A DNA stretch of 64,000 nt from Planctomycetaceae bacterium (lineage in GTDB: Bacteria > Planctomycetota > SZUA-567). The stretch is from assembly GCA_021201355.1 (NCBI GenBank), contig JAJQFC010000024.1, positions 206 to 64,205 of the forward strand, given 5' to 3'. The translations under genes and the position numbers were made by a program. Below the pieces are notes generated by a model that was given only the letters and a program-made list of their open reading frames with translations, had not been told where the DNA came from and ran no database searches. This document shows positions 18,732 to 35,365 of this stretch, one piece after another (the first letter of the stretch is position 1; each line of letters starts with the position of its first letter).

Positions 18732-19072
18732 GGCGGTGAAGCTACCGATGATACCATTGGTAAAAACCTTCGTATCCGTGACGGGAACGGGTGTCGCGGG
18801 CGGTCCGGGCATCATCAAGCCTGTTTTCGTTCTGCAGCGTGTGGGCCAGCCGACATGGTTGTGGCTATGTGGCAGTTATCCTTAGTTTATCCACTCTCGG
18901 GTTTCATCAGGGAGTATTGGAGGCCATGAAAAAACCTCCGGACCCGAACCGGGTGCGGAGGCATGGTGACGACTGGGAGTCGACACAGGATAAACCTGTG
19001 TCCTCTTCAGGGAGCAACACCGCCGCGCGGAGGCTGCCGACGCGCGGCGGTGACGTATGGCTTTACGGTAAA

Positions 19073-19675
19073 CTATCGGGTGGCGGTCGTAAAATCGATG
19101 TTGTTCCGGTCCATCCAGTCGCGGAATTCACGGATTTCTTCCGCCTGCTGTTCAATAATGTCTTCAGCCAGCTTCCGGATGTCCGGGTTTTTCGACATAA
19201 CGAGGGGCGGAAGGGACATGTCGATGGCGGCAGCGTGGTGCGGGATCATCTGGATGATGAAGGCGGTGTCCGGATCGCCCTGGCTGGACATCTGCATCAT
19301 CTGCTCCATGTGGGTCCGCATCTGGTCGGCGGCTTCGCGGTCTTCGCCACCGATGCGCTGGAGGATGCGGCGCATCTTCAGGACTTCTTCCTCCTGGTCT
19401 TCGATAATGTCGTCGGCCCATTCGCGAATGTGGCGGTCGCGGCTGCCGAGGAGCGGACGGGACATGTCGATGGCCCCTTCATGATGGGCGATCATCGCGG
19501 ACAGGAAGGCGCGGTCGTCGTTGACGGTCCAGTCGTGCATTGCTCCGTCACTGGTGGCGGTAGCGGTGGCAGCGGTTCCCGTGTGGTCCATCGTGCCGGT
19601 GGTGTTCATGTCCATTGCTTGTGCTCCGCAGAATGCGGAGACGCAGAGTGCCGCCAAGAGCATCACTGTTTTCAT
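19073..19675 (-). CDS. DUF305-family secreted protein
   Basis: Signal peptide, then two FLSAMIAHHEGAIDM / FIIQMIPHHAAAIDM repeats typical of DUF305. AAGGAG SD. Confidence 0.8.
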   Translation of the reverse strand: MKTVMLLAALCVSAFCGAQAMDMNTTGTMDHTGTAATATATSDGAMHDWTVNDDRAFLSAMIAHHEGAIDMSRPLLGSRDRHIREWADDIIEDQEEEVLKMRRILQRIGGEDREAADQMRTHMEQMMQMSSQGDPDTAFIIQMIPHHAAAIDMSLPPLVMSKNPDIRKLAEDIIEQQAEEIREFRDWMDRNNIDFTTATR

Positions 19676-19781
19676 TTCGTCTCCTTGAGGTTCCCCCTCG
19701 AAATATCAGGGCGGACAGACGTTACGAACGTCATATCCGGAATGGATCGTTAACGCGAAACGGTCCATAGTATCCTATCGC

Positions 19782-19816
19782 AAAAAACAAGCCGTCACCC
19801 GCATGGAGTGACGGCT
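19782..19816 (-). terminator. intrinsic terminator ending the hdr-flx-frd-like operon
   Basis: Stem AGCCGTCAC / GTGACGGCT, followed on the minus strand by TGTTTTTTG. It starts 55 nt past the flavoprotein stop. Confidence 0.75.
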
Positions 19817-19870
19817 TTGTCGTAGTAAGGTGGATTTCGGCGCTCCGTATGGTCGCCGCCGGTGCGTTTC

Positions 19871-21487
19871 CTATACCGCCACGTCTTCGTCGCCGCGGCC
19901 GTGGGTGTAGGTCGGAAGAAGCATCGGGGACGGGGTCGTCGTGTTGATGCCGGCGCCGGTCCGCTCGGTTTCGAACTTCTTGACGTGGTCCAGATTCGCC
20001 TTCCCCGGGGTGACGGACTTGTATTTGGCGCCGGCCTGCTGCCCGGCGTTCCGGCCGAAGACGATGATGTCGAGAAGGGAATTCCCCATCAGCCGGTTCC
20101 GGCCGTGGATGCCGCCGACCGCTTCACCGGCGATGTAGAGATTTTCAATATCGCTCTGCCCGTCCGGGTGGACGCGGATGCCGCCATTCTGGTAATGGAG
20201 CGTCGGGTAGACGAGAATGGGCTTGGTGCGGATGTCCATGTCGTACTTCCCGTACATGCGCATCATGGCGGGAATGCGTTTTTCGATAGTGCCGGCGCCG
20301 TGGATCTCTTCGATCTGCGGGGTGTCGAGCCAGACGCCATAGCCTTCCGGCGTCTTGACGCCGTTCATGCGCTCGTTGCATTCCCGGATAATGCCGGCCG
20401 AGGTGACGTCACGCGTTTCCAGCGGGTGGATAAAGGCAATGCCGTCCTTGTTGACGAGCTGCGCGCCGAGGGAACGGACCTTTTCCGTGACGAGGGCGCC
20501 AAAGATCTGGTTCGGGTAGGCGACGCCGGTCGGGTGGTACTGGAGCGTGTCCTGGTAGAGTAGCCGCGCACCGGCCCGGTAGGCGAGGATAAGCCCGTCC
20601 GCCGTCGCGCCGTAGTGGTTGGACGTGGGGAAGCCCTGATAGTGCATGCGGCCGGCCCCGCCGGTGGCGAGGACGACGACCTTCGCGCGGGCGATAAGGA
20701 TGTCCCCGGTTTCCATATTCATGAGGACGGCGCCGCAGGCGCGGCCCTGGTCGTCCAGGAGGAGTTCTATGGCCGAGGTGAAGTCGACGACCTGGATGCC
20801 CCGGTTGTAGACTTCGTCCCGGAGGGTGCGCATGATTTCGGCGCCGGAGTAATCCTTGGCCGCGTGCATGCGCTTCCGCGAGGTGCCGCCGCCGTGGGTC
20901 GTTATCATGGTGCCGTCGGCGTCCTTGTCGAACATGACGCCGAGTTCGTTGAGCCATTTGACCGCGCCGGGGCCGTCTGAGACAAGCTTCCGGAGGAGTT
21001 CCGGAACGTTGGCGAAATGGCCGCCGCCGAGGGCGTCGATGTAGTGAATGGCCGGCGAGTCGTTCGGCTTGTCCGCCGCCTGGATGCCGCCTTCCGCCAT
21101 CATGGTGTTGGCGTCGCCGAGGCGGAGCTTGGTGACGAGGAGGACGTTGGCGCCGGCCTCGTTCGCCTCGACAGCCGCCGAGGTACCGGAGCCGCCGCCG
21201 CCGATGACGAGGACGTCGACGTCGTACGTCGCAGTATCCGGGTCGATGTCCATGTCGAGGACGCGGCTCCGGCCCTGAAGCAGTTCGGCCAGTTCGAGGG
21301 GGACTTTTTCCCCCTTGTTCGGCCCGATTTTCAGATCGGTGAACATGTCCTGCCGGTAGTCCGGATGGAACTTCGCCAGGAGATTGGTCTTGTCATCCGC
21401 CGAGAGCCGGGCGGGAAGCACGCCCATGCGGCTTTTGCGGGTCGCTTCGACGTTCTTGATCGAGTCCAGTATTTCCTGTGTATACAA
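19871..21487 (-). CDS. soluble succinate dehydrogenase/fumarate reductase-type flavoprotein (FrdA/TfrA-like)
   Basis: DVLVIGGGGSGTSAA FAD motif, QYHPTG, HYQNGGI and GGIHGRNRLMGNSLLD. About 90-aa N-terminal extension. Probable TTG start with an AAAGGGG SD. Confidence 0.75.
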   Translation of the reverse strand: MYTQEILDSIKNVEATRKSRMGVLPARLSADDKTNLLAKFHPDYRQDMFTDLKIGPNKGEKVPLELAELLQGRSRVLDMDIDPDTATYDVDVLVIGGGGSGTSAAVEANEAGANVLLVTKLRLGDANTMMAEGGIQAADKPNDSPAIHYIDALGGGHFANVPELLRKLVSDGPGAVKWLNELGVMFDKDADGTMITTHGGGTSRKRMHAAKDYSGAEIMRTLRDEVYNRGIQVVDFTSAIELLLDDQGRACGAVLMNMETGDILIARAKVVVLATGGAGRMHYQGFPTSNHYGATADGLILAYRAGARLLYQDTLQYHPTGVAYPNQIFGALVTEKVRSLGAQLVNKDGIAFIHPLETRDVTSAGIIRECNERMNGVKTPEGYGVWLDTPQIEEIHGAGTIEKRIPAMMRMYGKYDMDIRTKPILVYPTLHYQNGGIRVHPDGQSDIENLYIAGEAVGGIHGRNRLMGNSLLDIIVFGRNAGQQAGAKYKSVTPGKANLDHVKKFETERTGAGINTTTPSPMLLPTYTHGRGDEDVAV

Positions 21488-21610
21488 GGTCGCACCCCTT
21501 TAAACCGTAATGATTGAGTTTAGCCACACGGACAGGCTTTAGCCAAGAATGCCAATCCGGTGTTCCATCCCCGCGCGGGACAGCGGCGCTAACGCAGTCC
21601 GTCCCGTCCG

Positions 21611-22285
21611 CTACGCTTCGATTTCCCGCGTGTTGTACAGTTCTTTCAATTCCTCGACCGGCTTCTGCATGAGCTGGGTGAGGAGATCGTCGAACTGGCC
21701 GTCGTCGATTTCCTTGACCCGGTCCGCCAGGTGCTGTGACTTCGGCGCCAGGTACTTGCCGGTGAGCCGACGCGCCAGTTCCGCCACCTGCGGGTGGGAA
21801 ATGCCGGCCGGGCAGCGGGACGAACAGACGCCGCACATGACGCAGTCGAAGGATTCTTCCGCGCACTTCTCGTACTCGGCCCGCTGGGCGAAGGCGATGT
21901 ACTGCATCACCTTCAGGTCCTGGGTGCAGGCCTTCGTGCAAGCGTTGCAGCCGATGCAGGAATAGATTTCCGGGTAGAGCTGCATCATTATCTGCTGGGT
22001 CGGCTTGATTTTTTCGATGTCGTAGACTTCCTTGAGGAGCGGGAAGAACGGCAGGGTGGCGATGTACATCCCGTCCTGAACCGTGGTCTGGCAGGCGAGG
22101 GCGACCTTGAGTTCGCGGTCGCCGGCGATGCGGTAGATGGTGGCGCAAGCGCCGCAGAAGCCGTTCCGGCAGCCGCAGCCGCGGACCAGCTTGTACCCGG
22201 CGTATTCCATCGCCCCCATGATTGTGAGAATGCCCGGCACCTTGTAGCGTTTGCCGAAGATGTAGACGTGCACCATGTCTTCCAT
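21611..22285 (-). CDS. SdhB/FrdB-like iron-sulfur protein (2Fe-2S plus two 4Fe-4S motifs)
   Basis: CGCRNGFCGAC...C, then CIGCNACTKAC and CVMCGVCSSRCP. AAAGGA SD. Confidence 0.7.
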   Translation of the reverse strand: MEDMVHVYIFGKRYKVPGILTIMGAMEYAGYKLVRGCGCRNGFCGACATIYRIAGDRELKVALACQTTVQDGMYIATLPFFPLLKEVYDIEKIKPTQQIMMQLYPEIYSCIGCNACTKACTQDLKVMQYIAFAQRAEYEKCAEESFDCVMCGVCSSRCPAGISHPQVAELARRLTGKYLAPKSQHLADRVKEIDDGQFDDLLTQLMQKPVEELKELYNTREIEA

Positions 22286-22408
22286 TGTTTATCCTTTGCT
22301 CGGTTCCGGGAACTGACCGCGTCCGGGTTGCTGACGCCCACTCCCCACGAATCCTCGACCAAACAGTTCAACGTTTCTCGACGCCCGTGTCCGATGGACC
22401 GTCACCGC

Positions 22409-23257
22409 CTAGTATTCTTCCGGCAGGGCGTCCAACTGATCGAAGCGGAACACCGGGCCGTCGCGGCAGACGTATTTCGATCCGATGTTGCAGCGGCCGC
22501 ATTTGCCGACGCCGCATTTCATCCGGAGTTCCATCGTGGTATAGACCTGGGTGTCGGCAAAGCCCATTTCGCGGAGCGCCGCCAGGACGAACTTGATCAT
22601 GATAGGCGGGCCGCAGACAAGCACCGTCTTCGTCGGCGGGAACGCCAGTTCCTTGACGTAGTTCGGGACAAAGCCGACGTGACCCTTCCAGCTTTCCTCT
22701 TCCCGGTCGACGGTGAGGTGCACCTTGACGTCGTCCTTCCCGTCCCACTCGCCCTTGATTTCGTCGAGGTAGACGAGGTCGGCGGAACTGCGGGAGCCGT
22801 AGACGATGTCGACGGTGCCGTAATTCGACCGGTGGTAGCGGACATAGTTAATGACCGACCGGAGCGGCGCCAGGCCGATGCCGCCGGCGACGAACACGAG
22901 GTCTTTCCCCTTGAGTTCGGTGTCCACCGGAAAACTGTTCCCGTAGGGACCGCGAATCGTCAGGTGCTGGCCAACCTCCATGTCGTGGAGCCAGTCCGTC
23001 AGGCGGCCGCACTTCTTGATGGAGAATTCCATATAGTTTGTGTTCGTGGGGGATGAGGTGATGGAAAACATCGCCTCGCCAACGCCGGGGACCGACAACA
23101 TGGCGCACTGCCCGGGCGCGTGGCTGAAACAGACGCCTTCGCCGCCCGGCAGGGTGACCCGGAACGTCTTGACGTCCGGAGTCTGCTGTTTGATGTCGGT
23201 GACAATCCCGAGGGTCGGAATCAGGGTGTCACGGATGGTATCGCAGCTACAGCTCAT
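22409..23257 (-). CDS. FAD/NAD(P)-binding oxidoreductase with C-terminal 2Fe-2S (AsrB/HydG/FlxA-like)
   Basis: Ferredoxin-reductase-type fold (FVAGGIGLAPL) and C-terminal CGVGKCGRC motif. ATGA overlap with the upstream gene. Confidence 0.75.
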   Translation of the reverse strand: MSCSCDTIRDTLIPTLGIVTDIKQQTPDVKTFRVTLPGGEGVCFSHAPGQCAMLSVPGVGEAMFSITSSPTNTNYMEFSIKKCGRLTDWLHDMEVGQHLTIRGPYGNSFPVDTELKGKDLVFVAGGIGLAPLRSVINYVRYHRSNYGTVDIVYGSRSSADLVYLDEIKGEWDGKDDVKVHLTVDREEESWKGHVGFVPNYVKELAFPPTKTVLVCGPPIMIKFVLAALREMGFADTQVYTTMELRMKCGVGKCGRCNIGSKYVCRDGPVFRFDQLDALPEEY

Positions 23258-24285
23258 GCCTTCGTCTCCATGGCTTTCATGACCCGGACGATGTTCAGGG
23301 CCGAGGGACACTTTTCGACGCAGCGGCCGCAGCCGACGCAACTGTACACCCCGTCGTTGTTCTGCGGGAAATAGACGAGCTTGTGCATGAAGCGCTGGCG
23401 GAAGCGCTGCAACTGCGTCGTCCGCGGGTTGCCGTGGGCCATCAGGGTAAAGTCCGAATACATGCAGGAATCCCAGCAGCGGAAGCGCCGCACGCCGGCC
23501 GCGCCGTCGTCCCGGTCCTGGATGTCGTAGCATTGGCAGGTCGGGCAAACGAAGGTGCAGGTGCCGCAGCCGAGACAGGCTTCGGACAACCGGCTCCAGG
23601 CGTCGAGGCCGAAGATGTCGTCCGTTTGTTCCATCGCGACGACCGGCGGCTTCAGTTCGGTGAACGGCGCCGCATCCCACGCTTTCGTCGCGTCGGCCTT
23701 GACCTGGCCGACTGCCGCGTCGCCGTCCGGCCCGGCGTCCTGGAGGACGGCGCCGACGGCGGCGGTGAGGGCTTCACCTTTTTCGGTGAGCGGTTCCCAA
23801 TACAATGTATCGCCGACCATCCAGGTCGCGACATCGCCGCCCGGCGCCGACGAGTCGATGCCGAAGCTTTGACAAAAACAACTGTCTTCCGGCGCGCCAC
23901 AGGCGAGGGTGACGACGGTGCCGACTTCGCGGCGGGCCGCGTAAAAACTGTCTTTCGGGTCGACGAGGAAAACCCGGTCAAGAACATCCATCCCGGCCGC
24001 GTCGCAGGCGCGCATGGCGAAGACGACAAACGGCGCTTCCGCCGTCGGCGCCGAATTGATGTCGATTTCCTTCCCGTTCATCCGGAAGCGGACGATGTCC
24101 TCGGTCTGGGGAAAGAAAAAGTCCTTGCCGCTCTTGGCGGTCTTACCGGTGAGGGAGACGTTCGCGCCGTCCGACCAGAGGCCGAATTCGACGCGGTTGT
24201 CGTCTTCCCGGGGCAACCAGAGCTGGCGGTCCTTGGCGATTTCCGCGTACAGTTTCGGGAGGTCAGTAACAGGAATTTTCCGCAT
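23254..24285 (-). CDS. 4Fe-4S dicluster protein (AsrA / sulfhydrogenase-beta / FlxB-like)
   Basis: CLGCGTCTFVCPTCQC and CVGCGRCVEKCP. Start MRKIPVTDL overlaps the upstream stop (TAATG). Confidence 0.7.
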   Translation of the reverse strand: MRKIPVTDLPKLYAEIAKDRQLWLPREDDNRVEFGLWSDGANVSLTGKTAKSGKDFFFPQTEDIVRFRMNGKEIDINSAPTAEAPFVVFAMRACDAAGMDVLDRVFLVDPKDSFYAARREVGTVVTLACGAPEDSCFCQSFGIDSSAPGGDVATWMVGDTLYWEPLTEKGEALTAAVGAVLQDAGPDGDAAVGQVKADATKAWDAAPFTELKPPVVAMEQTDDIFGLDAWSRLSEACLGCGTCTFVCPTCQCYDIQDRDDGAAGVRRFRCWDSCMYSDFTLMAHGNPRTTQLQRFRQRFMHKLVYFPQNNDGVYSCVGCGRCVEKCPSALNIVRVMKAMETKA

Positions 24286-25268
24286 TATTGGCCTCCTCCG
24301 GAAGCGACCACTTCCGACGGTTCCGGATCGGTCTCGGTAAATTCGGTGAGGGGAGTCATTCCGAAATCGTCCGTCCCGGCCGCGAACGGGCCGTAGGCGC
24401 GGTTGATGTCCTTGATGAACTTCCGGTTCAGAAGATGCAGGGGAATCCCTTGCGGGCAGGCCCGGCTGCATTCGCCGCAGTCGGTGCAGCGGCCGGCGAC
24501 GTGGAAGGCGCGGATGATGTGGAACATCTTTTCTTCAAACGTCTCCGAATTCGCCTTCCCGGACACCGGGTTCGCCGGATTGTCGAAAACGCATTTCACG
24601 CAGGAACAGACCGGGCAGATATTCCGGCAGGCATTGCAGCGAATGCAGCGGGACAGCTCCTTCTGCCAGAACGCGAACCGTTCGGCCGGGGCCATCGCTT
24701 CAAGTTCCTCGACCTGCTTGAAACGGACCGGGCTTTCACCCTGATCCTTGATGTCGACCAGGAGTTCGTCCTGGATGCGGTGGGTGTTACTTTTACAGGC
24801 GATGCATTTTTCCAGGGCGACGGCGTCGCGGGGCAGAACCTTTTCCCCGTCGGCGGTGTCGAAGACGAATTCGGCGCCGCGCTGCTTCGCGTCCTTCAGG
24901 CCGCAAATGCCGGCCCGGCGGACCTTTTCGGGGTCGAGCATATCGCCCGTCGGGATGCCGAGGACATAGACGGCTTCCCGTTCGAGGCGGTTTTCCCCGA
25001 GCATCTGATTGAGGCTATAGGTGTCGCACGGCTTAAGGAGGGCGAGGACGCGCCCGTCCGCCGCCTTCCGCCCGTTCAGGTAACGGGAGACATTGGCGGC
25101 GCAGAAGCAGTCGTAGACAAAGTCGTTGTCAAGTTCTTCCGCCGTTTCGAAAAACGCCGGCACCCGGTCCCCGGGCATTTCACCGCGCTTCCAGCCCCAG
25201 ACGCCGACAACGGTGCCGTCGGCCAGGAGTGCTTTGGCGCGGTCGATGATTTTTTCTCTCATTCCCAT
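24285..25268 (-). CDS. 4Fe-4S dicluster protein (FlxC-like)
   Basis: CIRCNACRNICPVCSC and CTDCGECSRACP. The start overlaps the mvhD-like stop (TGATG). Confidence 0.65.
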   Translation of the reverse strand: MGMREKIIDRAKALLADGTVVGVWGWKRGEMPGDRVPAFFETAEELDNDFVYDCFCAANVSRYLNGRKAADGRVLALLKPCDTYSLNQMLGENRLEREAVYVLGIPTGDMLDPEKVRRAGICGLKDAKQRGAEFVFDTADGEKVLPRDAVALEKCIACKSNTHRIQDELLVDIKDQGESPVRFKQVEELEAMAPAERFAFWQKELSRCIRCNACRNICPVCSCVKCVFDNPANPVSGKANSETFEEKMFHIIRAFHVAGRCTDCGECSRACPQGIPLHLLNRKFIKDINRAYGPFAAGTDDFGMTPLTEFTETDPEPSEVVASGGGQ

Positions 25269-25711
25269 CAGCGCAGTTCTCCCAGGTTGTTTTTCGGGCC
25301 GAGCTGGGCCACATGACTGCAAAAGTCCCGCATGGTGGCGGCGAACTTGGCGCCTTCGGCGGCGGAGATCCATTCCACCCGGGTCCGGTCGCGTTCGATG
25401 CCGAGGTAGTCGAGCATGCCGAACAGCATGGACATCCGGCGGCGGGCATAGTAATTGCCGGTGGTGTAGTGGCAGTCCCCGGGATGACAGCCGGCGATGA
25501 TGACGCCGTCGGCGCCGCGCTGGAAGGCCCGGAGAACAAACAGCGGGTTGACCCGGCAGGAACAGGGCACCCGGATAATCTTGACGTCGGCCGGGTAATC
25601 CAGCCGGCTGGTGCCGGCCAGGTCGGCCCCGGCGTAACTACACCAGTTGCAGCAAAACGCGACGATGAGCGGCTTGGTAGCCGTGGTCGCGTCGTTTTCA
25701 GTCATCGGCAT
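25268..25711 (-). CDS. MvhD-like (methyl-viologen-reducing hydrogenase delta / FlxD-like) protein
   Basis: FCCNWCSYAGADLAG...IRVPCSCRV...GCHPGDCHY. GGAGGTGG SD. 10-nt overlap with the hdrA stop. Confidence 0.85.
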   Translation of the reverse strand: MPMTENDATTATKPLIVAFCCNWCSYAGADLAGTSRLDYPADVKIIRVPCSCRVNPLFVLRAFQRGADGVIIAGCHPGDCHYTTGNYYARRRMSMLFGMLDYLGIERDRTRVEWISAAEGAKFAATMRDFCSHVAQLGPKNNLGELR

Positions 25712-27699
25712 ATAGCATCCACCTCCGCCAAAATCTGCCGGGTCGAGAAGCCCCAGAGGTCCATCACGCCGGACGGGCAGGTCACGGTGCAGGCGCCGCA
25801 GCCCTGGCAGACCGCTTCGTTGACCTGGGCAACGCGGGTGGAGAGGCGCTTTCCTTCCCGGTGCACTTCCTTGACTTCATAGGTAATCGCCCCGTAGGGA
25901 CACACGTTTTCACAGAGGCCGCAGCCGTTACACATCGGTTCGGCCGGGCTGGCGATACAGGGGTTCGTAATGAGCTTGTCCTTGACGAGGAGGCCAATCA
26001 CCTTCGACGCGGCGGCGCCGGCCTGGGCCACCGTCTCCGGAATGTCCTTCGGGCCCTGGCACAGACCGGACAGGTAGACGCCGGCTGTCGGGCTTTCCAC
26101 CGGACGGAGCTTCGGGTGGGCTTCCGTGAAGAAGTCGTTCGTGTCCATGCTGGCGGTGAGCATCGTCGCCAGGTTCCGGGCGCCCTTTTCCGGTTCGACC
26201 GCCGTCGCCAGGACAACCATATCGGCTTCGATATGGAGCTGTTTGTCGTGGAGGAGATCGGACGCCTGGATGAGGAGCATGTCGCCCTTCTTTTCCACCT
26301 GGCCGACCATGCCCTTGATGTAATGGACATTGTACTGCTCGATAGCGCGGCGCTGGAACTCGTCGAAAGCCTTGCCGGGCGTCCGGACGTCGATGTAGAA
26401 AACATAGACTTCGGAATCCGGATACTTCTCGCGGACGAGCATGGCGTGCTTGGCCGTGTACATGCAGCAGATTTTCGAACAATAGGTCTTTTCGCATTCG
26501 CCGGAACCGCGGGAGCCGACGCACTGGACAAAGACGATACGCTTCGGTTCCTTGTGATCGCTCGGCCGGACGAGGTGTCCGCCGGTCGGCCCGGCGGCGT
26601 TGCAGAGCCGCTCGAACTCGAGGGAGGTGATGACGTCCGGGTATTCTTCGTAGCGGAATTCCCCGTACGGTTCCGGACTCACCGTGTCGAAGCCGGTGGC
26701 GACGACGATAGCGCCGTAGCTTTCTTCGAGGATGGTGTCTTCCTGGTCGTAGTGGACGGCCTTCGAAGGACAAATCTTTTCGCAGACGCCGCACTTCCCG
26801 GTCTGGAACTTGATGCAGTTTTCCCGGTCGATCACGGGCACGTTCGGGATGGCCTGGGCGAACGGGATGTAAATCGCCGACCGGTTCCGTAGGCCCTGGT
26901 CGAACTCGGACTTCGCCTTCTTCGCCGGGCACTTTGCCATGCAGTCGCCGCAGCCGGTACAGGCGACTTCGTCGACGCACCGGGCTTTTTTCCGGATCTT
27001 CACCTTGAAGTCGCCGACGAACCCGGACACCGATTCAACTTCCGAATAGGTGTGGATGGTGATGTTTTCGTGCTGGGCCGCCTCGACCATCTTCGGCGTC
27101 AGGATGCAGGCGGCGCAGTCGAGGGTCGGAAAGGTCTTGTCGAGCTGGGCCATCTTGCCGCCGATGGTCGGTTTCCGTTCGACAATGTCGACCTTGAAGC
27201 CGGCGTCGGCGACATCGAGCGCCGTCTGGATGCCGGCGATGCCGCCGCCGATGACGAGGGCGCGCTTGACGACGCGGCTTTCGCCGGCGGTCAGGGGGGT
27301 GTTCAGCATCACCTTGGCGATGGCGGTGCGGCCGAGGATGATGGCCTTCTCCGTCGCGTCCTGCTTATTCCGGTGAATCCAGGAGCACTGCTCACGGATG
27401 TTCGCGACCTCGACCATAAACGGGTTGAGGCCGGCGGCGGCCGCCGCCTTCCGGAACGTCGGTTCGTGCATCCGGGGGGAACAGGCCGCGACGACGATGC
27501 CGGTGAGGGCGTGGTCCTTAATGGCGGAACGGATGGCGCCCTGCCCGCCTTCGGAACACATATATTGATAGTCCATGGCGAAGGCAACGCCGGGTTCTTT
27601 CCCAAGCGTCTCCGCCACCTTTTTCACGTCGACGGTCGCGGCGATGTTCGAACCGCACCAGCAGACGAATACACCAATTCTATGCAAGGCAATCTCCAA
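25702..27699 (-). CDS. hdrA: heterodisulfide reductase subunit A-like flavoprotein
   Basis: N-terminal VFVCWCGSNIA domain, FAD motif VIGGGIAGIQTA and four CxxCxxCxxxCP motifs. 665 aa. An alternative TTG start at 27687 has a GGAG SD. Confidence 0.9.
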   Translation of the reverse strand: MEIALHRIGVFVCWCGSNIAATVDVKKVAETLGKEPGVAFAMDYQYMCSEGGQGAIRSAIKDHALTGIVVAACSPRMHEPTFRKAAAAAGLNPFMVEVANIREQCSWIHRNKQDATEKAIILGRTAIAKVMLNTPLTAGESRVVKRALVIGGGIAGIQTALDVADAGFKVDIVERKPTIGGKMAQLDKTFPTLDCAACILTPKMVEAAQHENITIHTYSEVESVSGFVGDFKVKIRKKARCVDEVACTGCGDCMAKCPAKKAKSEFDQGLRNRSAIYIPFAQAIPNVPVIDRENCIKFQTGKCGVCEKICPSKAVHYDQEDTILEESYGAIVVATGFDTVSPEPYGEFRYEEYPDVITSLEFERLCNAAGPTGGHLVRPSDHKEPKRIVFVQCVGSRGSGECEKTYCSKICCMYTAKHAMLVREKYPDSEVYVFYIDVRTPGKAFDEFQRRAIEQYNVHYIKGMVGQVEKKGDMLLIQASDLLHDKQLHIEADMVVLATAVEPEKGARNLATMLTASMDTNDFFTEAHPKLRPVESPTAGVYLSGLCQGPKDIPETVAQAGAAASKVIGLLVKDKLITNPCIASPAEPMCNGCGLCENVCPYGAITYEVKEVHREGKRLSTRVAQVNEAVCQGCGACTVTCPSGVMDLWGFSTRQILAEVDAICR

Positions 27700-27766
27700 A
27701 GGATGAAGTTGTGCAAATGTCTTCGGTCAATTGTGGTTTATTGTGATGGCGCCGTGGCACCTTTGA

Positions 27767-28156
27767 TTATTTATTGTACTTCCGCATGGCGGCGACGATG
27801 GCCTGTTGCGGCAGTTCGTCGTCGAGCATGTCCGGAACCTCCCCGGGAGGCATATGGTTTTCCCCGGCTTCACGAATCTGAAGAAGCCGCACCGCTTCAA
27901 TGATGTTCGCGGGCTGGACGTCCCGGGGACAGCGTTCGACACAGGTGAAGCAGGACAGGCAGCGCCACAGCGTCTCGCAGTTGACGAGGCCTTCGTAATC
28001 GTTGTCCGCCACCATCGACACCACCTTGTGCGGATGCACGTCCATGGATTCGAAGGCGGGGCAGCTGGCGCTGCACTTGCCGCAGCGCATGCATTTGGCC
28101 GCGTTGATGCCGCTGATGCGTTCGACTTCGGCCTGGGCGTCTTTTATTCCGTGCAT
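27767..28156 (-). CDS. hdrC: heterodisulfide reductase subunit C-like
   Basis: CMRCGKCSASCP and CLSCFTCVERCP. ATG 28156 overlaps the hdrB 3' end by 13 nt. Confidence 0.85.
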   Translation of the reverse strand: MHGIKDAQAEVERISGINAAKCMRCGKCSASCPAFESMDVHPHKVVSMVADNDYEGLVNCETLWRCLSCFTCVERCPRDVQPANIIEAVRLLQIREAGENHMPPGEVPDMLDDELPQQAIVAAMRKYNK

Positions 28157-28980
28157 GCACACTCCCTTCCGGCCAGGGCCAGTGCCGCGTCCGCGTCCTG
28201 GCGGACGTCGAGGGCGTCGGCAAGCACTTCGGTGAAATAAACAATCGGCAACTGTGTTTCCGTCGCGTTGGTGTTCAGGTTGTAAAGGCACAGCGGGCAG
28301 GCGGTGATGACCAGTTCGGCGCCGTCCGTTTTGGCCACGCCGAGAACGGCTTCGGTCATGTCCTGGGCCAGTTTTTTGTTGCCGAGGGTGGTATAGCCGC
28401 CGCAGCACTGGGACCGTTTCGAAAACGGCACCGGCTCGCCGCCGAGGGCCCGGATGAGGTTTTCCATAATTTGCGGGTTGTCCGGGCGGTCGAAGTCCAT
28501 GACGTCGGACGGCCGGAGGAGCATGCAGCCGTAGTAGGCGGCGACTTTTTTGCCGTTAAGCGGCTTCTTGACCCGCTTGGCGATTTCGTCGAAGCCGATG
28601 GTGTCCCGGAGCATTTCGAGGTAGTGGACCACCTTCGTCTCACCCGAATACCGGGTCGCGAAGGCGGAATAATTATTCGCCCGCAGGTTGATGTCGGGGT
28701 CGTTCGCCATGTCGTCGTTGACCCGCTTCAGGACATGGTGGCAGGCGGAACAAAGGGTGATGAGTTCGCCGCCATTCTGGCGGGCCGCCTCGAGGGCGCG
28801 GACAGCCGACAGCTTGGACGCGATTTCGTCGCGGGCCAGCGGGTAAACCGCACCGCAGCACTGCCATTCGGGCAATTCTTCGAGGGTGACGCCCAGCGCT
28901 TCGGCCGCGGCGCGGGCGTTGGCATCGAGCTGCGCCGCCTTGGTCTTGAGCGTACATCCGGGGTAGTAGTTCCGTTTCAT
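28144..28980 (-). CDS. hdrB: heterodisulfide reductase subunit B-like (two CCG domains)
   Basis: EWQCCGAVYP and SQCCGGYT CCG motifs. 278 aa. Confidence 0.85.
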   Translation of the reverse strand: MKRNYYPGCTLKTKAAQLDANARAAAEALGVTLEELPEWQCCGAVYPLARDEIASKLSAVRALEAARQNGGELITLCSACHHVLKRVNDDMANDPDINLRANNYSAFATRYSGETKVVHYLEMLRDTIGFDEIAKRVKKPLNGKKVAAYYGCMLLRPSDVMDFDRPDNPQIMENLIRALGGEPVPFSKRSQCCGGYTTLGNKKLAQDMTEAVLGVAKTDGAELVITACPLCLYNLNTNATETQLPIVYFTEVLADALDVRQDADAALALAGRECACTE

Positions 28981-29257
28981 GTAGTCCGCCTCGGTTGTTA
29001 TGTATATAGGAGGAAATACGAAGAATCTTCACCGTTTCAGCGATACCGCCACATGGGCGCGGCAGCGACGCCGCGTCGTGTCCCGCAGGGCGAAAAGGCC
29101 GCTTTTTTCCCGTGAAAACACGAAAAAAACCGTCCGCCGCCGCGAGGTTCGTTCGACCCGGCCGGGGCTGGAGAAACCGCCAGACCCTTTTCCGCCGGTG
29201 AACAAAGTTTTGAAAGCAATATAGACACTATAAACTTCACAACACCGTTATTCAAGA

Positions 29258-29552
29258 TTTTTTTACTAATAATTTTTTATTGATAAAATTCTATTGATAT
29301 TTGATCAATCAAACTTTTTTCCACACTCTTCCGCGTTTTGATGGTAAATATACCTATCTTCTTTCACGTCAAACCCTTCTTACCAGAGGGGACCAGCCGG
29401 ACCTTCCCCACTCCTCCGCCTCCGGCACTTCCGGCCAGTTTTATTCGGAGATTTTTTACCGATATTTTTTTACTGATTGATTGACAAAAGGGTTACGCGT
29501 GATATACTGGTAACTATATGATAACATTTTTATTGATAACTTTTTACCGATA
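29258..29552. promoter_or_regulatory. AT-rich divergent control region with seven T-tract + AYYGATW units in three clusters at 14-bp spacing
   Basis: Heptamers ACTAATA 29265, ATTGATA 29279, ATTGATA 29293; ACCGATA 29458, ACTGATT 29472; ATTGATA 29532, ACCGATA 29546. Six of the seven are preceded by T5-7 (the 29293 copy is not). Within each cluster, neighbours are exactly 14 bp apart. Confidence 0.6.
29481..29508 (+). promoter_or_regulatory. sigma70-type promoter for the fumarase operon
   Basis: TTGACA (29481-29486), 16 nt, TATACT (29503-29508). Confidence 0.6.
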
Positions 29553-29656
29553 GCCCGAGGCGAAATCCGTTTTTACGCAGCCCGGAGTCGGTGACAGTGG
29601 CCTGTTCGTCCAAAATTTTTTCCACTCACACTCACTCATTTCACAAGGGGACGGTA

Positions 29657-30499
29657 ATGCGAGAGCTCTCCGCTGACACCATTACCAGCGCCGTCCGCGA
29701 CATGTGCATCGAGGCGAATCTCGAACTCCCGAAAGACGTAGCCGACTGCATCCGGACTCGAAGCCGCGAGGAACCCTGGCCCGCCGCCAAGGACACGCTG
29801 GAAAAGCTGGTTGAAAACATCAACATCGCCCACAACGACAAGATGCCCCTGTGCCAGGACACCGGCATGGCCGTCGTCCTTGTCGAACTTGGGCAGGACG
29901 TCCACATTACCGGCGCCTACCTGGTCGACGCGATTAACGAAGGCGTCCGCCAGGGCTATGATCAGGGCTTTCTCCGGAAGTCCGTCGTCGCCGATCCGCT
30001 CCGGCGGAAAAACACCGGCGACAACACCCCGGCCCTCGTCCACGTCGACATCGTCCCGGGCGATAAGGTGAAAATTACCGTGGCGCCGAAAGGCTTCGGC
30101 TCGGAAAACATGAGCCGCCTCGTCATGCTCGCCCCGTCCGCCGGGGAAAACGGCGTCAAGGACTTCGTCGTCGAAACGGCGAAGATTGCCGGTCCGAACC
30201 CCTGTCCTCCCATTGTCGTCGGCGTCGGCATCGGCGGTTCGTTCGACCGGGTGGCGCTTCTTGCCAAAAAGGCCCTGCAGCGGCCCATCGACCAACCGAA
30301 TCCGGACCCGTACTACGCCGAGATGGAAAAGGAACTGCGGGATCGCATCAACGCCCTCGGCATCGGTCCCCAGGGCTTCGGCGGCGAGACCACCGTCCTC
30401 GGCGTCAATATCGAGGTCTTCCCGACCCACATCGCCGGCCTGCCGGTGGCGGTCAACATCAACTGCCATGTGACCCGGCACGCCTCCCGCGTGCTGTAA
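29657..30499 (+). CDS. Fe-S-type (class I) fumarate/tartrate hydro-lyase, alpha subunit
   Basis: ATG 29657 with an AAGGGGA SD. MPLCQDTGMAVV motif and the overall class I fumarase N-terminal-domain pattern. Confidence 0.85.
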   Translation: MRELSADTITSAVRDMCIEANLELPKDVADCIRTRSREEPWPAAKDTLEKLVENINIAHNDKMPLCQDTGMAVVLVELGQDVHITGAYLVDAINEGVRQGYDQGFLRKSVVADPLRRKNTGDNTPALVHVDIVPGDKVKITVAPKGFGSENMSRLVMLAPSAGENGVKDFVVETAKIAGPNPCPPIVVGVGIGGSFDRVALLAKKALQRPIDQPNPDPYYAEMEKELRDRINALGIGPQGFGGETTVLGVNIEVFPTHIAGLPVAVNINCHVTRHASRVL

Positions 30500-30568
30500 C
30501 CGGCGCACGACGTTGGCACGCCGTGAAGAACCGGTCGGTACTCCGAATCCACTAAAAAAGGCCTTCGC

Positions 30569-31144
30569 ATGGAAAGCATCAAAATAACCACGCCCTTTTC
30601 CGAAGCCGACGCGCGGAAATTGAAAGCCGGCGACACCGCCCTCATTACCGGCGTCATCTACACCGCCCGCGACGCCGCCCATAAACGCCTTGTCGAACTC
30701 CTCGACAAAGGGGAACCCCTCCCCATCGACGTCAAGGACGCCTTCATCTACTACGTGGGCCCGACGCCGCCGAAACCGGGACAGGCAATCGGCTCGGCCG
30801 GCCCGACCACCAGTTACCGGATGGACGCCTACGCCCCGCGCCTTCTCGACCTCGGCCTCCGCGGCATGATCGGCAAGGGCAAGCGGTCACAGGACGTCAT
30901 CAACAGCATGAAGAAAAACGGCTCCGTCTATTTCGGCGCCATCGGCGGCGGCGCCGCCCTCATCGCCAAACGCATCGTCTCGGCGGAGGTGGTCTGCTAC
31001 GAAGATCTCGGCAGCGAAGCCATCCGCCGCCTCGAAGTGAAGGATTTCCCCGTCACCGTCATCATCGACGCCGAGGGGAACAACCTCTATGAAATAGGGG
31101 TCAGCGAATACCTCATGGCCAAGGCCGACGGCAAGCTCGGGTAG
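30569..31144 (+). CDS. Fe-S-type (class I) fumarate/tartrate hydro-lyase, beta subunit
   Basis: GVIYTARDAAHKRL...YYVGPTP...GPTTSYRMD...MIGKGKR pattern of the beta domain. Confidence 0.85.
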   Translation: MESIKITTPFSEADARKLKAGDTALITGVIYTARDAAHKRLVELLDKGEPLPIDVKDAFIYYVGPTPPKPGQAIGSAGPTTSYRMDAYAPRLLDLGLRGMIGKGKRSQDVINSMKKNGSVYFGAIGGGAALIAKRIVSAEVVCYEDLGSEAIRRLEVKDFPVTVIIDAEGNNLYEIGVSEYLMAKADGKLG

Positions 31145-31264
31145 TTGACCGGGCATTGTACCACATAAACTGGGTTGTGTCCACTCGAGGGGTCAATCGG
31201 CGGGGGCGCTGTGCAGCCGGTGCGATCCCGGGAGTGATTTTCACATTTTCTAAAGGAAAGCCTT

Positions 31265-32374
31265 ATGGAACGCAAACACTTTGAAATTCAGAGTCTCAAG
31301 AACCTGGTCAAGGCCATTTTCGAAAAGTACGGGCTTTCCCCGGAAAACAGCGAGGACGTGGCGAAAGCAATACTCGAGGCCGACCGCATGGGCATTGAAT
31401 CCCACGGCATTTCCCGTATCGGCATGTACATCTACGGCATGAAAATCGGCCGTATCCGCCCGACCGCCGAGACGAAACTGGTTCTCGAAACGCCGGTCTC
31501 CGCCGTCCTCGACGCCAACGACGGCATGGGCCAGCCCGCCTCCATCCGCGCCATGTCCATGGCGATTGAAAAGGCCAAGCGGAGCGGCATGGGCATCGTC
31601 GTCGTCCGGAACTCGAACCACTTCGGCATCGGCGGCTACTACTCCATGATGGCGGCGCGGGAACACATGCTCGGCATGTGCATGACGAACTCGGAAGCCA
31701 TGGTCGTCCCTACCTTCGGCCGCCGCGCCATGATGGGCACGAACCCCATTGCCGTGACGATGCCCGCGCACCCGGCCTGGTTCCACTTTGATATTTCCAC
31801 CTCCGTCGTCCCGGCCGGCAAGATTGAGGTCTACAGCCGGAACAAGGAAGCGCTGCCGGAAGGCTGGTCTGTCGGCTGCGACGGCAAGGTCAACACCGAC
31901 CCGGACGTGTTCTTGAAAATCCGCCGGGAAAAGCTCGACGGCGGCCTCCTCCCGATGGGCGGCTACGGCACCCGGAACTCCGGCCACAAAGGCTACGCCA
32001 TTTCCATGCTGGTCGAACTCATGACCGGCGTCTTCGCCAGCGGCAACACTTCGAACCATGTCCGGGAAGTCCCGAACGTCGACCGCTGCTGCCACATGTT
32101 CCAGGTCATCGATTACGGCATATTCGGCGACAAAAAGGCGATTGAGGACCACTTCAGCCGCTACTTGAATGAAATCCGCGCCTCCGCCAAGGCCGAAGGC
32201 CAGGACCGCATCTTCACCCAGGGCGAAATCGAAACCGCGACCAAGCTCCGCGTCGACCGGGAAGGCGTCGGTATTCACGAAAAGAGCCTGCAGGACATTA
32301 TCAGCATCTGCAACGAAGTCGGCGTCGACTACCAGTCGATCATGGTCGAAAAGGCCCCCGCCGCCGCCAAATAA
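31265..32374 (+). CDS. Ldh_2-family malate/L-lactate/sulfolactate-type dehydrogenase
   Basis: GIESHGISRIGMY, VVRNSNHFGIGGYY and GTNPIAV motifs of the Ldh_2 family. Confidence 0.8.
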   Translation: MERKHFEIQSLKNLVKAIFEKYGLSPENSEDVAKAILEADRMGIESHGISRIGMYIYGMKIGRIRPTAETKLVLETPVSAVLDANDGMGQPASIRAMSMAIEKAKRSGMGIVVVRNSNHFGIGGYYSMMAAREHMLGMCMTNSEAMVVPTFGRRAMMGTNPIAVTMPAHPAWFHFDISTSVVPAGKIEVYSRNKEALPEGWSVGCDGKVNTDPDVFLKIRREKLDGGLLPMGGYGTRNSGHKGYAISMLVELMTGVFASGNTSNHVREVPNVDRCCHMFQVIDYGIFGDKKAIEDHFSRYLNEIRASAKAEGQDRIFTQGEIETATKLRVDREGVGIHEKSLQDIISICNEVGVDYQSIMVEKAPAAAK

Positions 32375-32624
32375 TCGTGAGGCGCCGGTACGGACGTCTC
32401 CGCGCCGCGCATCGGCACGCCCTGCCGACGTGCCTGGCCGACGTTCCCGGAAAGGCGGTAACGACATTTCGGTAATTTTCCGAAATTAGCTATTGCATTG
32501 CCGGTCAAAATGGCGTCAATAGTGAATGGCGTCGCCGACGGCGAAACACCGCCGCTGACGCCGGCGAACTCTATAGCAGCGACCCCGCCCCAGACGAGGA
32601 TATGTACGGTACGCCGGTCCGTGC

Positions 32625-33341
32625 ATGTTGCGTCAGGGGCGATTTTTTTTCCGATATGGTGTGAATAGTAACTGCGTGCGAATACGACTCTCCGATCATT
32701 TCACCTACGGCCGCCTATTCCGTTTCGTTTTCCCATCCATTGTCATGATGATTTTCATCTCCATTTACGGCGTCGTGGACGGCCTGTTCGTCTCGAACTA
32801 TGTCGGAAAAAACCCCGTTCGCGGCAATCAACCTGATTGTCCCGTTCCTTATGGCAATGGGGGCGGTTGGGGACGATAATTGGTTCGGGAGGCGCGGCGC
32901 TGGTGTCCAAAACGCTGGGGGAGGGAAACGGGAAAAGGCGAACCGGCTCTTCTCCATGCTGGTGTACCTGACGATCTTCATCGGCGCCGTCCTTACCGTC
33001 CTCGGGCTGTGGCTGGTCTGGCCGGCCTCCGTTCTCATGGGCGCGAGTGGCGATCTACTCGAATACTGCGTGTCGGCTTGGGGTTGGCAGGGGCGGCGAT
33101 ATCGTCGGTCATCGGGCAGGCGATCGGAGCGGTCGTTCCCATAGTCGATTTCGCCCGGAAAAACGACAGCCTGCTCCGCCTCGTCCGGCCGGCTTTCCCT
33201 TGTCGGGCCATACTGAAAGTCGCCACAAACGGCGCGTCGGAACTTCTTACTACGCTGTCGTCATCCTTCGTGAGCGTTCTCTATAACCTGCATTTCATCC
33301 GCCTCGCCGGTGAGGACGGCGTGGCCGCGTACGGCGTTATA
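32625..33341 (+). pseudogene. decayed MATE-family efflux transporter remnant
   Basis: MATE-like segments switch frame at least four times: frame 3 FVFPSIVMMIFISIYGVVDGLFVSNYVGKN, frame 1 PFAAINLIVPFLMAMGAVG, frame 2 IIGSGGAALVSKTLGEGNGK, frame 1 ANRLFSMLVYLTIFIGAVL...LEYCV, frame 3 AGAAISSVIGQAIGAVVP...GVAAYGVI. An internal piece and the whole C-terminal half are missing. Confidence 0.7.
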
Positions 33342-33412: not shown

Positions 33413-35365
33413 TTATCGGGTGGCCGCCTCGTCCTCGCTACTGTGGGCGTTCATGTTCGGCACCGGTTCCAACGAAAGGTGAGGCACGCCTTCCGAAGCC
33501 TGATCGGCCGCGCCCTCCACCGCCTTCACGATGGTCTCGTCCGTACTGTATTGCCGGACAATGTCCATGAATTCCTCGCCGGTGATTGTCTCGTGTTCGA
33601 GGAGGAAATCGGCGAGACGGTGGAGAAGGTCCATATTTCCCTTCAAAACTTCAACCGCCTTGTCGTGGCCTGACTTGACTATCTGGATAACCTTTTCATC
33701 AATCCGCGAACCGGTCTCGTCCGAACAGTTCAGGCCGGGGTCGCCCCCGAGGTACCGGTTCGTCATCACTTCCATCGCCGTCATGCCGAATTCGTCTGTC
33801 ATGCCGAACCGCGCCACCATGGACCGGGCCAGTTTCGTCATCTGTTCGATATCGTTGGCGGCGCCGGAGGTGGCGGTGTTGAAGACGAGTTCCTCCGCCG
33901 CCCGGCCGCCGGCGAAGGTGGCGATGCGGCCGAGGAGCTGCTCCCGCGTCATGAGGAACCGCTCCTTTTCGTCCACCTGCATGGTATAGCCGAGGGCGCC
34001 GGACGACCGGGGAACGATGGTGATTTTATGCACAGGCGCCGCGTCCGTCACCTTGGCGGCGACGAGGGCGTGGCCAATTTCATGGTACGACACCATGCGT
34101 TTTTCCTCGGGCGAAATCACCGTGCTCTTCCGCTGATACCCGGCGATGACCACCTCGACGGATTCCATCAGATCTTCCTGGGATACCCGGTCCCGCCCCT
34201 CACGCACCGCCCGGAGCGCGCCTTCGTTAATGATGTTTTCCAGTTCCGCCCCGGACGCGCCGGCGGTGGCCCGGGCAATAAAGTTCAAATCGATGTTGTC
34301 GGCCATTTTGACGCCCTTCGCGTGGACGCGGAGAATGGCTTCGCGGCCGACCAGATCCGGCAGTTCCACCGGAATCCGCCGGTCGAACCGGCCCGGCCGG
34401 AGGAGGGCCGGATCGAGGGATTCCGGGCGGTTGGTGGCGGCGAGGATGACGACGCCCTTGCAGCCGTCGAAGCCGTCCATCTCGGCGAGGAGCTGGTTGA
34501 GGGTCTGTTCCCGTTCGTCGTTGCCGCCGGGCATGCCGCCGCTGTCGCGCTTTTTGCCGATGGTGTCGATTTCGTCGATAAAAATGATGCACGGCGCCTT
34601 CTCCGTCGCCTGCTTGAAGAGGTCGCGGACCTTGGCCGCGCCCATGCCGACAAACATTTCGACAAACTCCGACCCGGATATGGAGAAGAACGGCACATGC
34701 GCCTCTCCGGCCACCGCCCGGGCGAGGAGAGTCTTGCCGGTGCCGGGAGGCCCGACGAGGAGGGCGTCTTTCGGGAGGACGGCGCCGATGGCGGAGTATT
34801 TGTCCGGGGAATGGAGGAAGTCGACGATTTCCCGGAGGGCGTCCTTGGCTTCGTCCTGGCCGGCGACGTCGTCGAAGCGTTTGCCGGTTTCGGATTCGGC
34901 GTAGATTTTGGCGTTGGACTTGCCGAGAGTCAGGGCGTTTTTCCCGCCGAAACTTTTCTGAAAGCCGCGCGCCAGCTATTGCCCGATCAGGATAAAAATG
35001 AACAGGGGCAAAATCCATGACAGGAGAAAACTCACTATCGGCGAGGTCTGGTGCGGTACGACCCGGGTAAACTTCACACCCTGCGTGTGGAGCCGGTCGA
35101 CGAGATCCGCGTCCTGCCAGGCGCCGGTGGAGTTAAGGACCGGTTCGCCTTCCTCGTTCTCCGTTTCATAGAGGATGCGATCGTCCTCGAGCGTCACCTC
35201 CCGAACGTTCCCCGCATCGAGTTCGGTGAGAAAGGTGCCGTAATCGACCTCATGAACCTTCGGTTTGGTGATGGCCGGAAACAGGAGCGTATTCATGAGC
35301 ATGAGGGCGATAAGAAGAAACATGAAATAGGGGATCGGCTGTTTCTTCGGCGAGTCTTCCAGCAT
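33413..35365 (-). pseudogene. ftsH: ATP-dependent zinc metalloprotease FtsH interrupted by one in-frame TAG
   Basis: Single frame of 651 codons (including the terminal stop), broken only by TAG at 34976-34978 just after TM2 (...LFIFILIGQ*LARGFQKSFGG...). Walker A GPPGTGKT, Walker [31 protein letters not shown] and HEIGH are all intact. ORF-track pieces are 34976-35365 and 33413-34714. Confidence 0.8.

Follow-up and report, generated by a model that had tools for sequence, protein, structure and literature searches.

A nine-gene Planctomycetaceae operon joining Flx–Hdr genes to an anchor-less fumarate-reductase-like pair: a candidate soluble bifurcating fumarate reductase

INTRODUCTION

We describe here a nine-gene operon from a Planctomycetaceae metagenome-assembled genome (MAG) in which genes of the FlxABCD–HdrABC type stand next to a pair of genes for a fumarate-reductase-like flavoprotein and its Fe–S subunit; it occupies positions 19871–28980, on the minus strand, of a 64,000-nucleotide stretch of contig JAJQFC010000024.1 (assembly GCA_021201355.1), hereafter called the window. 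Arrangements of this kind have been reported before. The 'succinate operon' of Pseudoclostridium thermosuccinogenes comprises a fumarate hydratase, seven Flx–Hdr genes, two genes for a fumarate reductase and a hypothetical gene taken to be a putative succinate transporter, and in RNA-seq of this succinate-making organism the whole operon rose together, about 4-fold, when CO2 was limiting (PMC7282089). As cited in that paper, a 2019 preprint by Koendjbiharie and van Kranenburg put forward a bifurcation hypothesis for the operon. In tubeworm symbionts and Thioflavicoccus, korABCD and tfrAB are interspersed with flxABCD–hdrABC, and a complex feeding both enzymes was proposed (PMC6315080); later work on the symbiont cluster added co-expression data and left the choice between a direct route and one through ferredoxin or a DsrC-like protein open (PMC11636981). 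A 2026 survey repeats the idea of Flx–Hdr joined to fumarate reductase. When the window was first read from its sequence alone, no characterised example of this architecture was known to the reader. That holds for biochemistry, for which we found no report, but the architecture itself has been described or proposed since 2019 (PMC7282089, PMC6315080, PMC11636981).

The window operon is thus a further member of an already proposed type of enzyme system. Likened by description only, it has the same composition as the P. thermosuccinogenes operon, namely an FrdAB-like pair, seven flx–hdr genes and a fumarase, but its host is a Planctomycetaceae MAG, its neighbours are a divergent class I fumarase and an Ldh_2-family gene, and it has no downstream permease or 'hypothetical' gene. 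The kor–flx–hdr–tfrAB cluster of tubeworm symbionts and Thioflavicoccus mobilis also has FrdAB/TfrAB-like genes among flxABCD–hdrABC and was proposed to encode a bifurcating complex reducing both fumarate and ferredoxin; one distant relative described below (L087) resembles it. The symbiont reductive tricarboxylic acid (rTCA) cluster, however, is autotrophic and tied to 2-oxoglutarate:ferredoxin oxidoreductase and ATP-citrate lyase, whereas the window operon has a fermentative setting and contains no kor. With the FlxABCD–HdrABC of Desulfovibrio vulgaris (Ramos et al. 2015) it shares all seven subunit types in a contiguous block, but the order here is hdrBCA–flxDCBA, two reductase genes are added, the proposed acceptor is fumarate rather than a DsrC disulfide, and the host is not a known sulfate reducer. 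Methanogen TfrAB with MvhADG–HdrABC would share the overall chemistry, fumarate reduction being ultimately coupled to HdrA-based ferredoxin reduction, and the Fe–S subunit and HdrB of the window together resemble a split TfrB. In contrast to the methanogen enzymes, the flavoprotein stays below the TfrA cut-off, the CCG domains sit on a separate HdrB and not on the Fe–S subunit, the predicted donor module is Flx (NADH) instead of a hydrogenase, and no CoM or CoB is expected. The flavoprotein fold and catalytic residues are those of quinol:fumarate reductase (FrdABCD) and succinate dehydrogenase, and the Fe–S partner has the same [2Fe–2S] motif, but the membrane anchor, the C-terminal flavoprotein domain and the covalent-FAD histidine of those enzymes are absent, two [4Fe–4S] motifs stand in place of [3Fe–4S], and an 87-aa N-terminal extension is specific to the family. 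The thermodynamic logic would be that of butyryl-CoA dehydrogenase/EtfAB, in which NADH feeds a high-potential C=C acceptor and ferredoxin, although those proteins are unrelated and their bifurcating flavin lies in Etf, not in HdrA.

To the earlier proposals we add the breadth of distribution, the strict nine-gene synteny, the association with non-orthologous fumarases and malate dehydrogenases (MDH), an associated permease, a natural fusion of the pair, alternative donor modules and a definition of the flavoprotein family. The functional link between Flx–Hdr and fumarate reduction suggested by the sequence-only reading is strongly supported by this comparative evidence: all nine genes are kept together in every one of the 53 loci with enough flanking DNA to show them, in most cases beside genes for the fumarate pathway.

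RESULTS AND DISCUSSION

The operon encodes a complete Flx–Hdr set and a reductase-like pair

Re-derivation of the open reading frames (ORFs) and their junctions gave nine genes in a single orientation, matching the nine co-oriented minus-strand genes first noted. In the order of transcription they are as follows.

28144–28980, minus strand: hdrB; 13-nt overlap with hdrC
27767–28156, minus strand: hdrC; 67-nt gap to hdrA (79 nt if hdrA starts at 27687)
25702–27699, minus strand: hdrA; 10-nt overlap with mvhD/flxD
25268–25711, minus strand: mvhD/flxD; TGATG junction to the flxC-like gene
24285–25268, minus strand: flxC-like gene; TAATG junction to the flxB-like gene
23254–24285, minus strand: flxB-like (AsrA-like) gene; ATGA junction to the flxA-like gene
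22409–23257, minus strand: flxA-like (AsrB-like) gene; 123-nt gap to the Fe–S protein gene
21611–22285, minus strand: Fe–S protein of the reductase; 123-nt gap to the flavoprotein gene
19871–21487, minus strand: flavoprotein, catalytic subunit; terminator downstream

Pfam and NCBIfam assignments agreed with the subunit names given at first reading, and all seven subunit types of FlxABCD–HdrABC are present, with the flx genes contiguous with the hdr genes. HdrB has two Pfam CCG domains, and both of its non-cubane [4Fe–4S] motifs are intact (C9, C41, C42, C77, C80 and C152, C192, C193, C228, C231); it scored 148 bits with the SdhE MFR anchor model and 131 bits with the HdrB model of NCBIfam, both under cut-off, and matched HdrB in the PDB (5odc_B/8rvu_b, E 1e-31). 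HdrC is a 2x[4Fe–4S] helical ferredoxin (Fer4_8/Fer4_17 and HdrC models) with two CxxCxxCxxxCP motifs. HdrA is a flavin/Fe–S subunit of the bifurcating type, with 783 bits to the HdrA2 model and a full-length match to Methanothermobacter wolfeii HdrA (5odc_A; 683 bits, residues 7–663). FlxD/MvhD is an MvhD-like [2Fe–2S] electron-entry protein (Pfam FlpD, 184 bits), and the FlxC-like subunit is a 2x[4Fe–4S] protein (Fer4_8/Fer4_9) with two CxxCxxCxxxCP motifs. The FlxB-like subunit carries Fer4_22, matches the ShyB, HydB and AsrA models and hits the beta subunit of sulfhydrogenase I in the PDB (9nez_B). An AsrA/sulfhydrogenase-beta likeness had been given to both 4Fe–4S proteins; it applies to this second one (Fer4_22) and not to the first. 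The FlxA-like subunit combines FAD_binding_6, NAD_binding_1 and DHODB_Fe-S_bind, matches the AsrB and HydG models and is predicted to bind FAD, NAD(P)H and [2Fe–2S]; it is presumed to be the entry point for NADH. PDB sequence searches returned only methanogen Hdr complexes and sulfhydrogenase I, with no structure of Flx–Hdr or of a related reductase among them. No transmembrane segment was found in any of the nine proteins by hydrophobicity in 19-residue windows (maximum 1.67), and the operon has no membrane-anchor gene of the FrdCD, SdhCD or HdrE type, which bears out what had been noted from the ORF list.

The nine genes are inherited together, beside fumarate-pathway genes

Relatives of the flavoprotein are encoded in at least 599 species-level genomes according to a pattern scan of GTDB species representatives, and we compared the best 80 of the at least 599 loci, whose flavoproteins are 68–84% identical to that of the window. 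The hosts of these 80 are Christensenellales, Oscillospiraceae, Lachnospiraceae, other Clostridia, Treponema, Synergistaceae, Planctomycetota and one 'Bacteroidaceae' MAG. Upstream DNA of 7.8 kb or more made a locus informative (n = 53). All 53, spread over several phyla, carry the complete set of nine genes in the same order and orientation; among the shorter loci no gene was missing where it should fit. The nine-gene synteny that the first reading had set as a test of its proposal is therefore found well beyond this genome.

The same loci carry further genes for the pathway. Fumarase is encoded in 49 of the 53 informative loci (class II in 44, class I in 5) and an MDH-like enzyme in 43. In Christensenella the fumarase exceeds the fumC_II cut-off, and the Ldh_1 enzyme has the malate-dehydrogenase signature Arg102. 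The window has its own counterparts in a divergent operon, whose content agrees by Pfam and NCBIfam with the class I fumarase alpha/beta and Ldh_2 dehydrogenase originally named there.

29657–31144, plus strand: class I fumarate hydratase alpha and beta, divergent (Pfam Fumerase, Fumerase_C)
31265–32374, plus strand: Ldh_2-family 2-hydroxyacid dehydrogenase, candidate malate dehydrogenase (Pfam Ldh_2, 361 bits)

Both fumarase subunits are above their NCBIfam cut-offs (PRK06246, 409 against 276; PRK06842, 320 against 238), and no NCBIfam equivalog was passed by the dehydrogenase. Most Clostridia have a class II fumarase and an Ldh_1 enzyme with Arg102 where the window has a class I fumarase and an Ldh_2 enzyme. 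That unrelated enzymes for the same two steps recur beside the operon speaks more strongly than anything else for fumarate as the substrate. Directly 3' of the flavoprotein gene, ORF clustering also revealed a gene for an AAEx-type (Asp-Al_Ex) permease in 51 of the 80 loci (e.g. L008:11629–12891); it is absent from the window. The Asp-Al_Ex (AAEx) family includes a succinate exporter, and the permease is probably a succinate exporter too; it may be the counterpart of the P. thermosuccinogenes gene described as 'hypothetical, potentially succinic acid transporter'.

Identities between the window and the clostridial loci (L005–L084) are uneven: 70–86% for the flavoprotein, the Fe–S subunit, HdrA and MvhD, and only 46–63% for HdrB, HdrC, FlxB and FlxC. 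Such a pattern suggests that the operon moved between phyla as a whole and that its subunits are under unequal constraint.

More distant relatives place the pair in other settings. In P0122 (L088:5250–7433, GCA_054283745.1) the Fe–S subunit and the flavoprotein are naturally fused into one protein of 727 aa, and two distant Fe–S/flavoprotein pairs stand alone. At L085:9366–12891 (GCA_018697835.1) a NuoF-like gene (Complex1_51K and NADH_4Fe-4S) comes after a 46%-identical pair and overlaps it, and these three may form a simple three-subunit soluble NADH:fumarate reductase. L087:811–9771 (Logan SRR24270839) encodes a ferredoxin and a four-subunit 2-oxoacid:ferredoxin oxidoreductase, followed by hdrA–mvhD–hdrC–hdrB–FeS–flavoprotein (54% identical) and then a fumarase-beta-like fragment; no flx genes were found between the oxidoreductase and the pair, or within the 3.7 kb upstream to the contig end. 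The link of the pair with HdrABC therefore recurs, and the alternative donor modules beside it point to a portable soluble reductase that takes electrons from Fe–S partners.

A distinct flavoprotein family with the fumarate reductase active site

The flavoprotein (538 aa, Pfam FAD_binding_2) contains DVLVIGGGGSG, QYHPTG and HGRNRLMGNSL, the three motifs singled out at first reading. It has no Pfam match to Succ_DH_flav_C (PF02910), and it has a conserved 87-aa N-terminal extension (FHPDY, GPNKGEKVP) that AlphaFold models with high confidence. The predicted structure (pTM 0.82) is closest in fold to Escherichia coli FrdA and Mycobacterium smegmatis Sdh1. Alignment with E. coli FrdA matched H318 (in QYHPTG), T334/E335 and R338 to H232, T244/E245 and R248, and R359, H431 and R465 to R287, H355 and R390. 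These catalytic residues are invariant in the family down to 39% identity, except for T334, which is Ser in three distant members. The histidine that binds FAD covalently in FrdA (H44) is replaced by Asn127, which is likewise invariant. By what is established for FrdA and SdhA, the replacement fits an enzyme working in the direction of fumarate reduction and not of succinate oxidation.

No NCBIfam model was matched above its cut-off. The best-scoring was TfrA (320.8 bits, cut-off 718); scores were lower for the actinobacterial SdhA/FrdA model, the best of the SdhA/FrdA set (270, cut-off 819), NadB (262.9 bits, cut-off 452.75) and sdhA_frdA_Gneg (261, cut-off 567). An exhaustive family search over 1.84 billion representatives showed a sharp drop in score, from 645–309 bits for the full-length family to below 290 bits for the next relatives, of about 400 aa and 540–600 aa. 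In a bootstrapped neighbour-joining tree (a distance method) with some of these relatives labelled by NCBIfam as TfrA, PRK07803-type SdhA, NadB-like or flavocytochrome c, the window flavoprotein falls in a clade of its own, apart from every labelled group, among them TfrA (genuine TfrA, P0194), SdhA/FrdA and the NadB-like sequences. Placement in a non-fumarate clade had been set as a test of the original proposal; the protein lies outside NadB and any other non-fumarate clade and keeps the catalytic set. The other computational tests named at first reading were likewise passed. On these sequence features we define a distinct flavoprotein family, marked by the N-terminal extension, the missing C-terminal domain and an Asn that invariably takes the place of the covalent-FAD His.

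The nearest outgroup in the tree consists of FAD_binding_2 proteins of about 400 aa with no NCBIfam assignment (P0160, P0161, P0168, P0181 and similar).

In the Fe–S subunit, Pfam recognises Fer2_4 and Fer4_7. An SdhB/TfrB-type [2Fe–2S] motif, CRNGFCGAC...C, is followed by two CxxCxxCxxxC motifs, and the protein should therefore carry one [2Fe–2S] and two [4Fe–4S] clusters. Pfam and NCBIfam searches and the cysteine map revealed neither a [3Fe–4S] motif nor a CCG domain, and NCBIfam gave weak TfrB and dhsB N-terminal matches. The subunit is 78–86% identical across phyla.

A bifurcating mechanism and its alternatives

The sequences show which genes are present, their cofactor motifs and catalytic residues, and the strict co-inheritance of the nine with fumarate-pathway genes; a single complex with direct wiring from HdrB/HdrC to the Fe–S subunit of the reductase, NADH as donor, and bifurcation are inferred. 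The nine genes would make up a soluble, quinone-independent fumarate reductase system in which FlxA (FAD, [2Fe–2S]) oxidises NADH and FlxB, FlxC and FlxD (MvhD) relay the electrons to the HdrA FAD. A high-potential branch would lead through HdrC/HdrB to the [2Fe–2S]/2x[4Fe–4S] subunit and on to the flavoprotein with its non-covalent FAD, where fumarate is reduced to succinate, and a low-potential branch would lead from HdrA to ferredoxin, giving the net reaction

2 NADH + fumarate + Fd(ox) → 2 NAD+ + succinate + Fd(red)

Fumarate could be supplied from oxaloacetate or malate by the adjacent dehydrogenase and fumarase, and the reduced ferredoxin (Fd) would be usable by the HydABC-type hydrogenase encoded in the window. 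With textbook potentials (NAD −320 mV, fumarate +33 mV, Fd about −420 mV) the net reaction yields about −49 kJ, so that bifurcation is feasible and the reverse is not.

We hold the parts of this proposal with different confidence. The flavoprotein/Fe–S pair is very probably a fumarate reductase, and the pair and Hdr–Flx probably act as one functional unit. The chances of the full bifurcating mechanism we put at about even, and those of one hard-wired soluble complex, in which the HdrB non-cubane clusters feed the reductase Fe–S subunit and not a disulfide, a little below that. Several findings weigh on the other side. The window operon is interrupted by intergenic gaps of 79 and 123 nt. Support for the deeper nodes in the tree of the flavoprotein is weak, and we therefore claim separation from the labelled clades and no sister relationship. 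The AlphaFold model of the Fe–S subunit is poor (pLDDT 60.6), and Foldseek with this model returned neither SdhB nor FrdB; its matches cover the N-terminal 2Fe–2S ferredoxin-like domain only and were not used as proof of SdhB homology, so the likeness to SdhB is drawn from the cysteine motif and the weak hidden Markov model matches. We also found no biochemical or structural characterisation of any member in the literature.

Direct wiring has to be weighed against a thiol/disulfide carrier that links two separate enzymes, the flavoprotein/Fe–S pair reducing fumarate with the thiol that Hdr–Flx produces. Methanogens offer the parallel, since TfrAB and Mvh–HdrABC are joined there through CoM-SH/CoB-SH. 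Both HdrB CCG motifs are intact here, so HdrB may still reduce a disulfide, which counts against direct wiring, and TfrA is the top NCBIfam model for the flavoprotein. The CCG domain, however, is the thiol-oxidising module of TfrB, and it is missing from the Fe–S subunit, for which reason direct Fe–S wiring is favoured over the shuttle. In the ORF clustering of the 80 loci, moreover, none of the 30 most widespread families listed is a conserved carrier gene: besides the nine, the genuine genes that are conserved are MDH, fumarase and the permease, and the other recurrent families lie antisense within the nine genes. The NuoF-like Fe–S/FMN module beside relatives of the pair also indicates electron input via Fe–S clusters. 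Taken together these points make a thiol shuttle unlikely.

Slightly less probable still, in our judgement, is a non-bifurcating NADH:fumarate oxidoreductase in which Hdr/Flx is a mere electron wire and no ferredoxin is reduced. Electron flow from NADH to fumarate is strongly exergonic by itself, and the distant relative with a NuoF-like subunit as its sole additional partner could work in this way. Hydrogenobacter thermophilus reportedly has a soluble five-subunit NADH-dependent fumarate reductase with no known bifurcation, said to have been described by Miura in 2008. Seven additional Fe–S/flavin subunits, among them a full-length HdrA with its ferredoxin domains, have nevertheless been kept across phyla at 69–74% identity, a retention that is difficult to reconcile with a simple wire. 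To our knowledge, moreover, all biochemically characterised HdrA-containing complexes bifurcate or confurcate.

It is very improbable that the bifurcating system described above is misassigned in its substrate, with L-aspartate (as in NadB) or another unsaturated acid as the true one and the fumarase neighbourhood a coincidence. No NCBIfam equivalog cut-off was passed (TfrA 321/718, NadB 263/453), L-aspartate oxidase has the same catalytic residues, and His198 presumably aligns with NadB Glu121 (manual alignment). Against this stand the fumarases of two unrelated classes in 49 of 53 loci, the recurrent MDH-like and AAEx-type permease genes, and the separation of the flavoprotein from NadB-like sequences in the tree. 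NadB, furthermore, has no Fe–S partner, neither nadA nor nadC is present, and succinate-making P. thermosuccinogenes is reported to use such an enzyme. Identity with NadB was rejected on the sub-cut-off score, the fumarase and dehydrogenase neighbours and the separate tree position. Operation in reverse, with electrons from succinate and reduced ferredoxin confurcated onto NAD+, is the least probable of all: flavin-based bifurcating enzymes are reversible in principle and syntrophs need succinate oxidation, but the reaction would cost about +49 kJ under standard conditions, the Asn that invariably replaces the covalent-FAD histidine speaks against succinate oxidation, and the hosts are fermenters, one of which excretes succinate.

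Implications for succinate-forming fermenters

These comparisons give the operon a much wider distribution than the two settings reported earlier. If the hard-wired complex is real, it would be the first HdrABC-type bifurcating enzyme with a C=C (fumarate) high-potential acceptor. The operon offers a directly testable candidate for a new class of flavin-based bifurcating enzyme, although specialists who know the 2019–2024 papers would not be surprised by it. With a relative of the flavoprotein encoded in at least 599 species-level genomes, many of them of gut Clostridia including Christensenella, such a complex would amount to a major unrecognised form of energy conservation in succinate formation: fermenters without quinones or a membrane-bound fumarate reductase would recover part of the large free energy of fumarate reduction as reduced ferredoxin, which could drive H2 formation or Rnf-type ion pumping. 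ATP-yield and redox models of succinate-producing gut and rumen Clostridia (Christensenella) and of engineered succinate producers would then change, and in autotrophs the same module could supply ferredoxin to the reductive TCA cycle. Christensenella minuta, C. tenuis and Yeguia hominis are cultivable hosts suited to a direct test.

Transcription signals, junctions and other genes in the window

Two candidate signals flank the nine genes.

29227–29255, minus strand: sigma-70-like promoter candidate for the nine-gene operon; weak, 9/12, consensus match only
19779–19817, minus strand: intrinsic terminator closing the operon; 12-bp stem (19817–19789) with 7 GC pairs, followed by a T-run

A scan of 19000–33000 on both strands ranked the terminator 3' of the flavoprotein gene as the strongest terminator-like site, in keeping with the original observation, and found none inside the operon. 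The junctions were also largely as first read, with the 13- and 10-nt overlaps, the TGATG, TAATG and ATGA junctions and both 123-nt gaps recovered; the exception is the 67-nt gap, which is likelier to be 79 nt. The TTG at 27699 has no Shine–Dalgarno sequence, whereas GGAG precedes the TTG at 27687, and hdrA read from 27687 encodes 661 aa, the length annotated in a 98%-identical genome. For both reasons 27687 is more probably the true start, which gives an hdrC–hdrA gap of 79 nt instead of 67 nt. In relatives, the three non-overlapping junctions have a median gap near 20 nt (an approximate, tblastn-based value). Together with the overlapping junctions, the lack of an internal terminator and the RNA-seq of the P. 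thermosuccinogenes operon, these short gaps are indirect evidence that the nine genes may be co-transcribed. A repeated or structured RNA element in the two 123-nt gaps was considered and rejected: the gaps share no sequence and fold no better than shuffled sequences (z-scores 0.66 and 0.07), so that their equal length is a coincidence.

Elsewhere in the window, genes for HydB, HydA and a malic enzyme were found where the sequence-only reading had reported a malic enzyme and a HydABC-type hydrogenase. An FtsH-like gene at 33413–35365 (minus strand) is split into an N-terminal membrane ORF (34976–35365) and an AAA/protease ORF (33413–34714), with the Walker A region between the two out of frame, which could be due to a frameshift or an assembly error, or mark a pseudogene. 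The gene for the beta clamp of DNA polymerase III, dnaN, lies at 43149–44237, and the chromosomal replication origin region may therefore be nearby.

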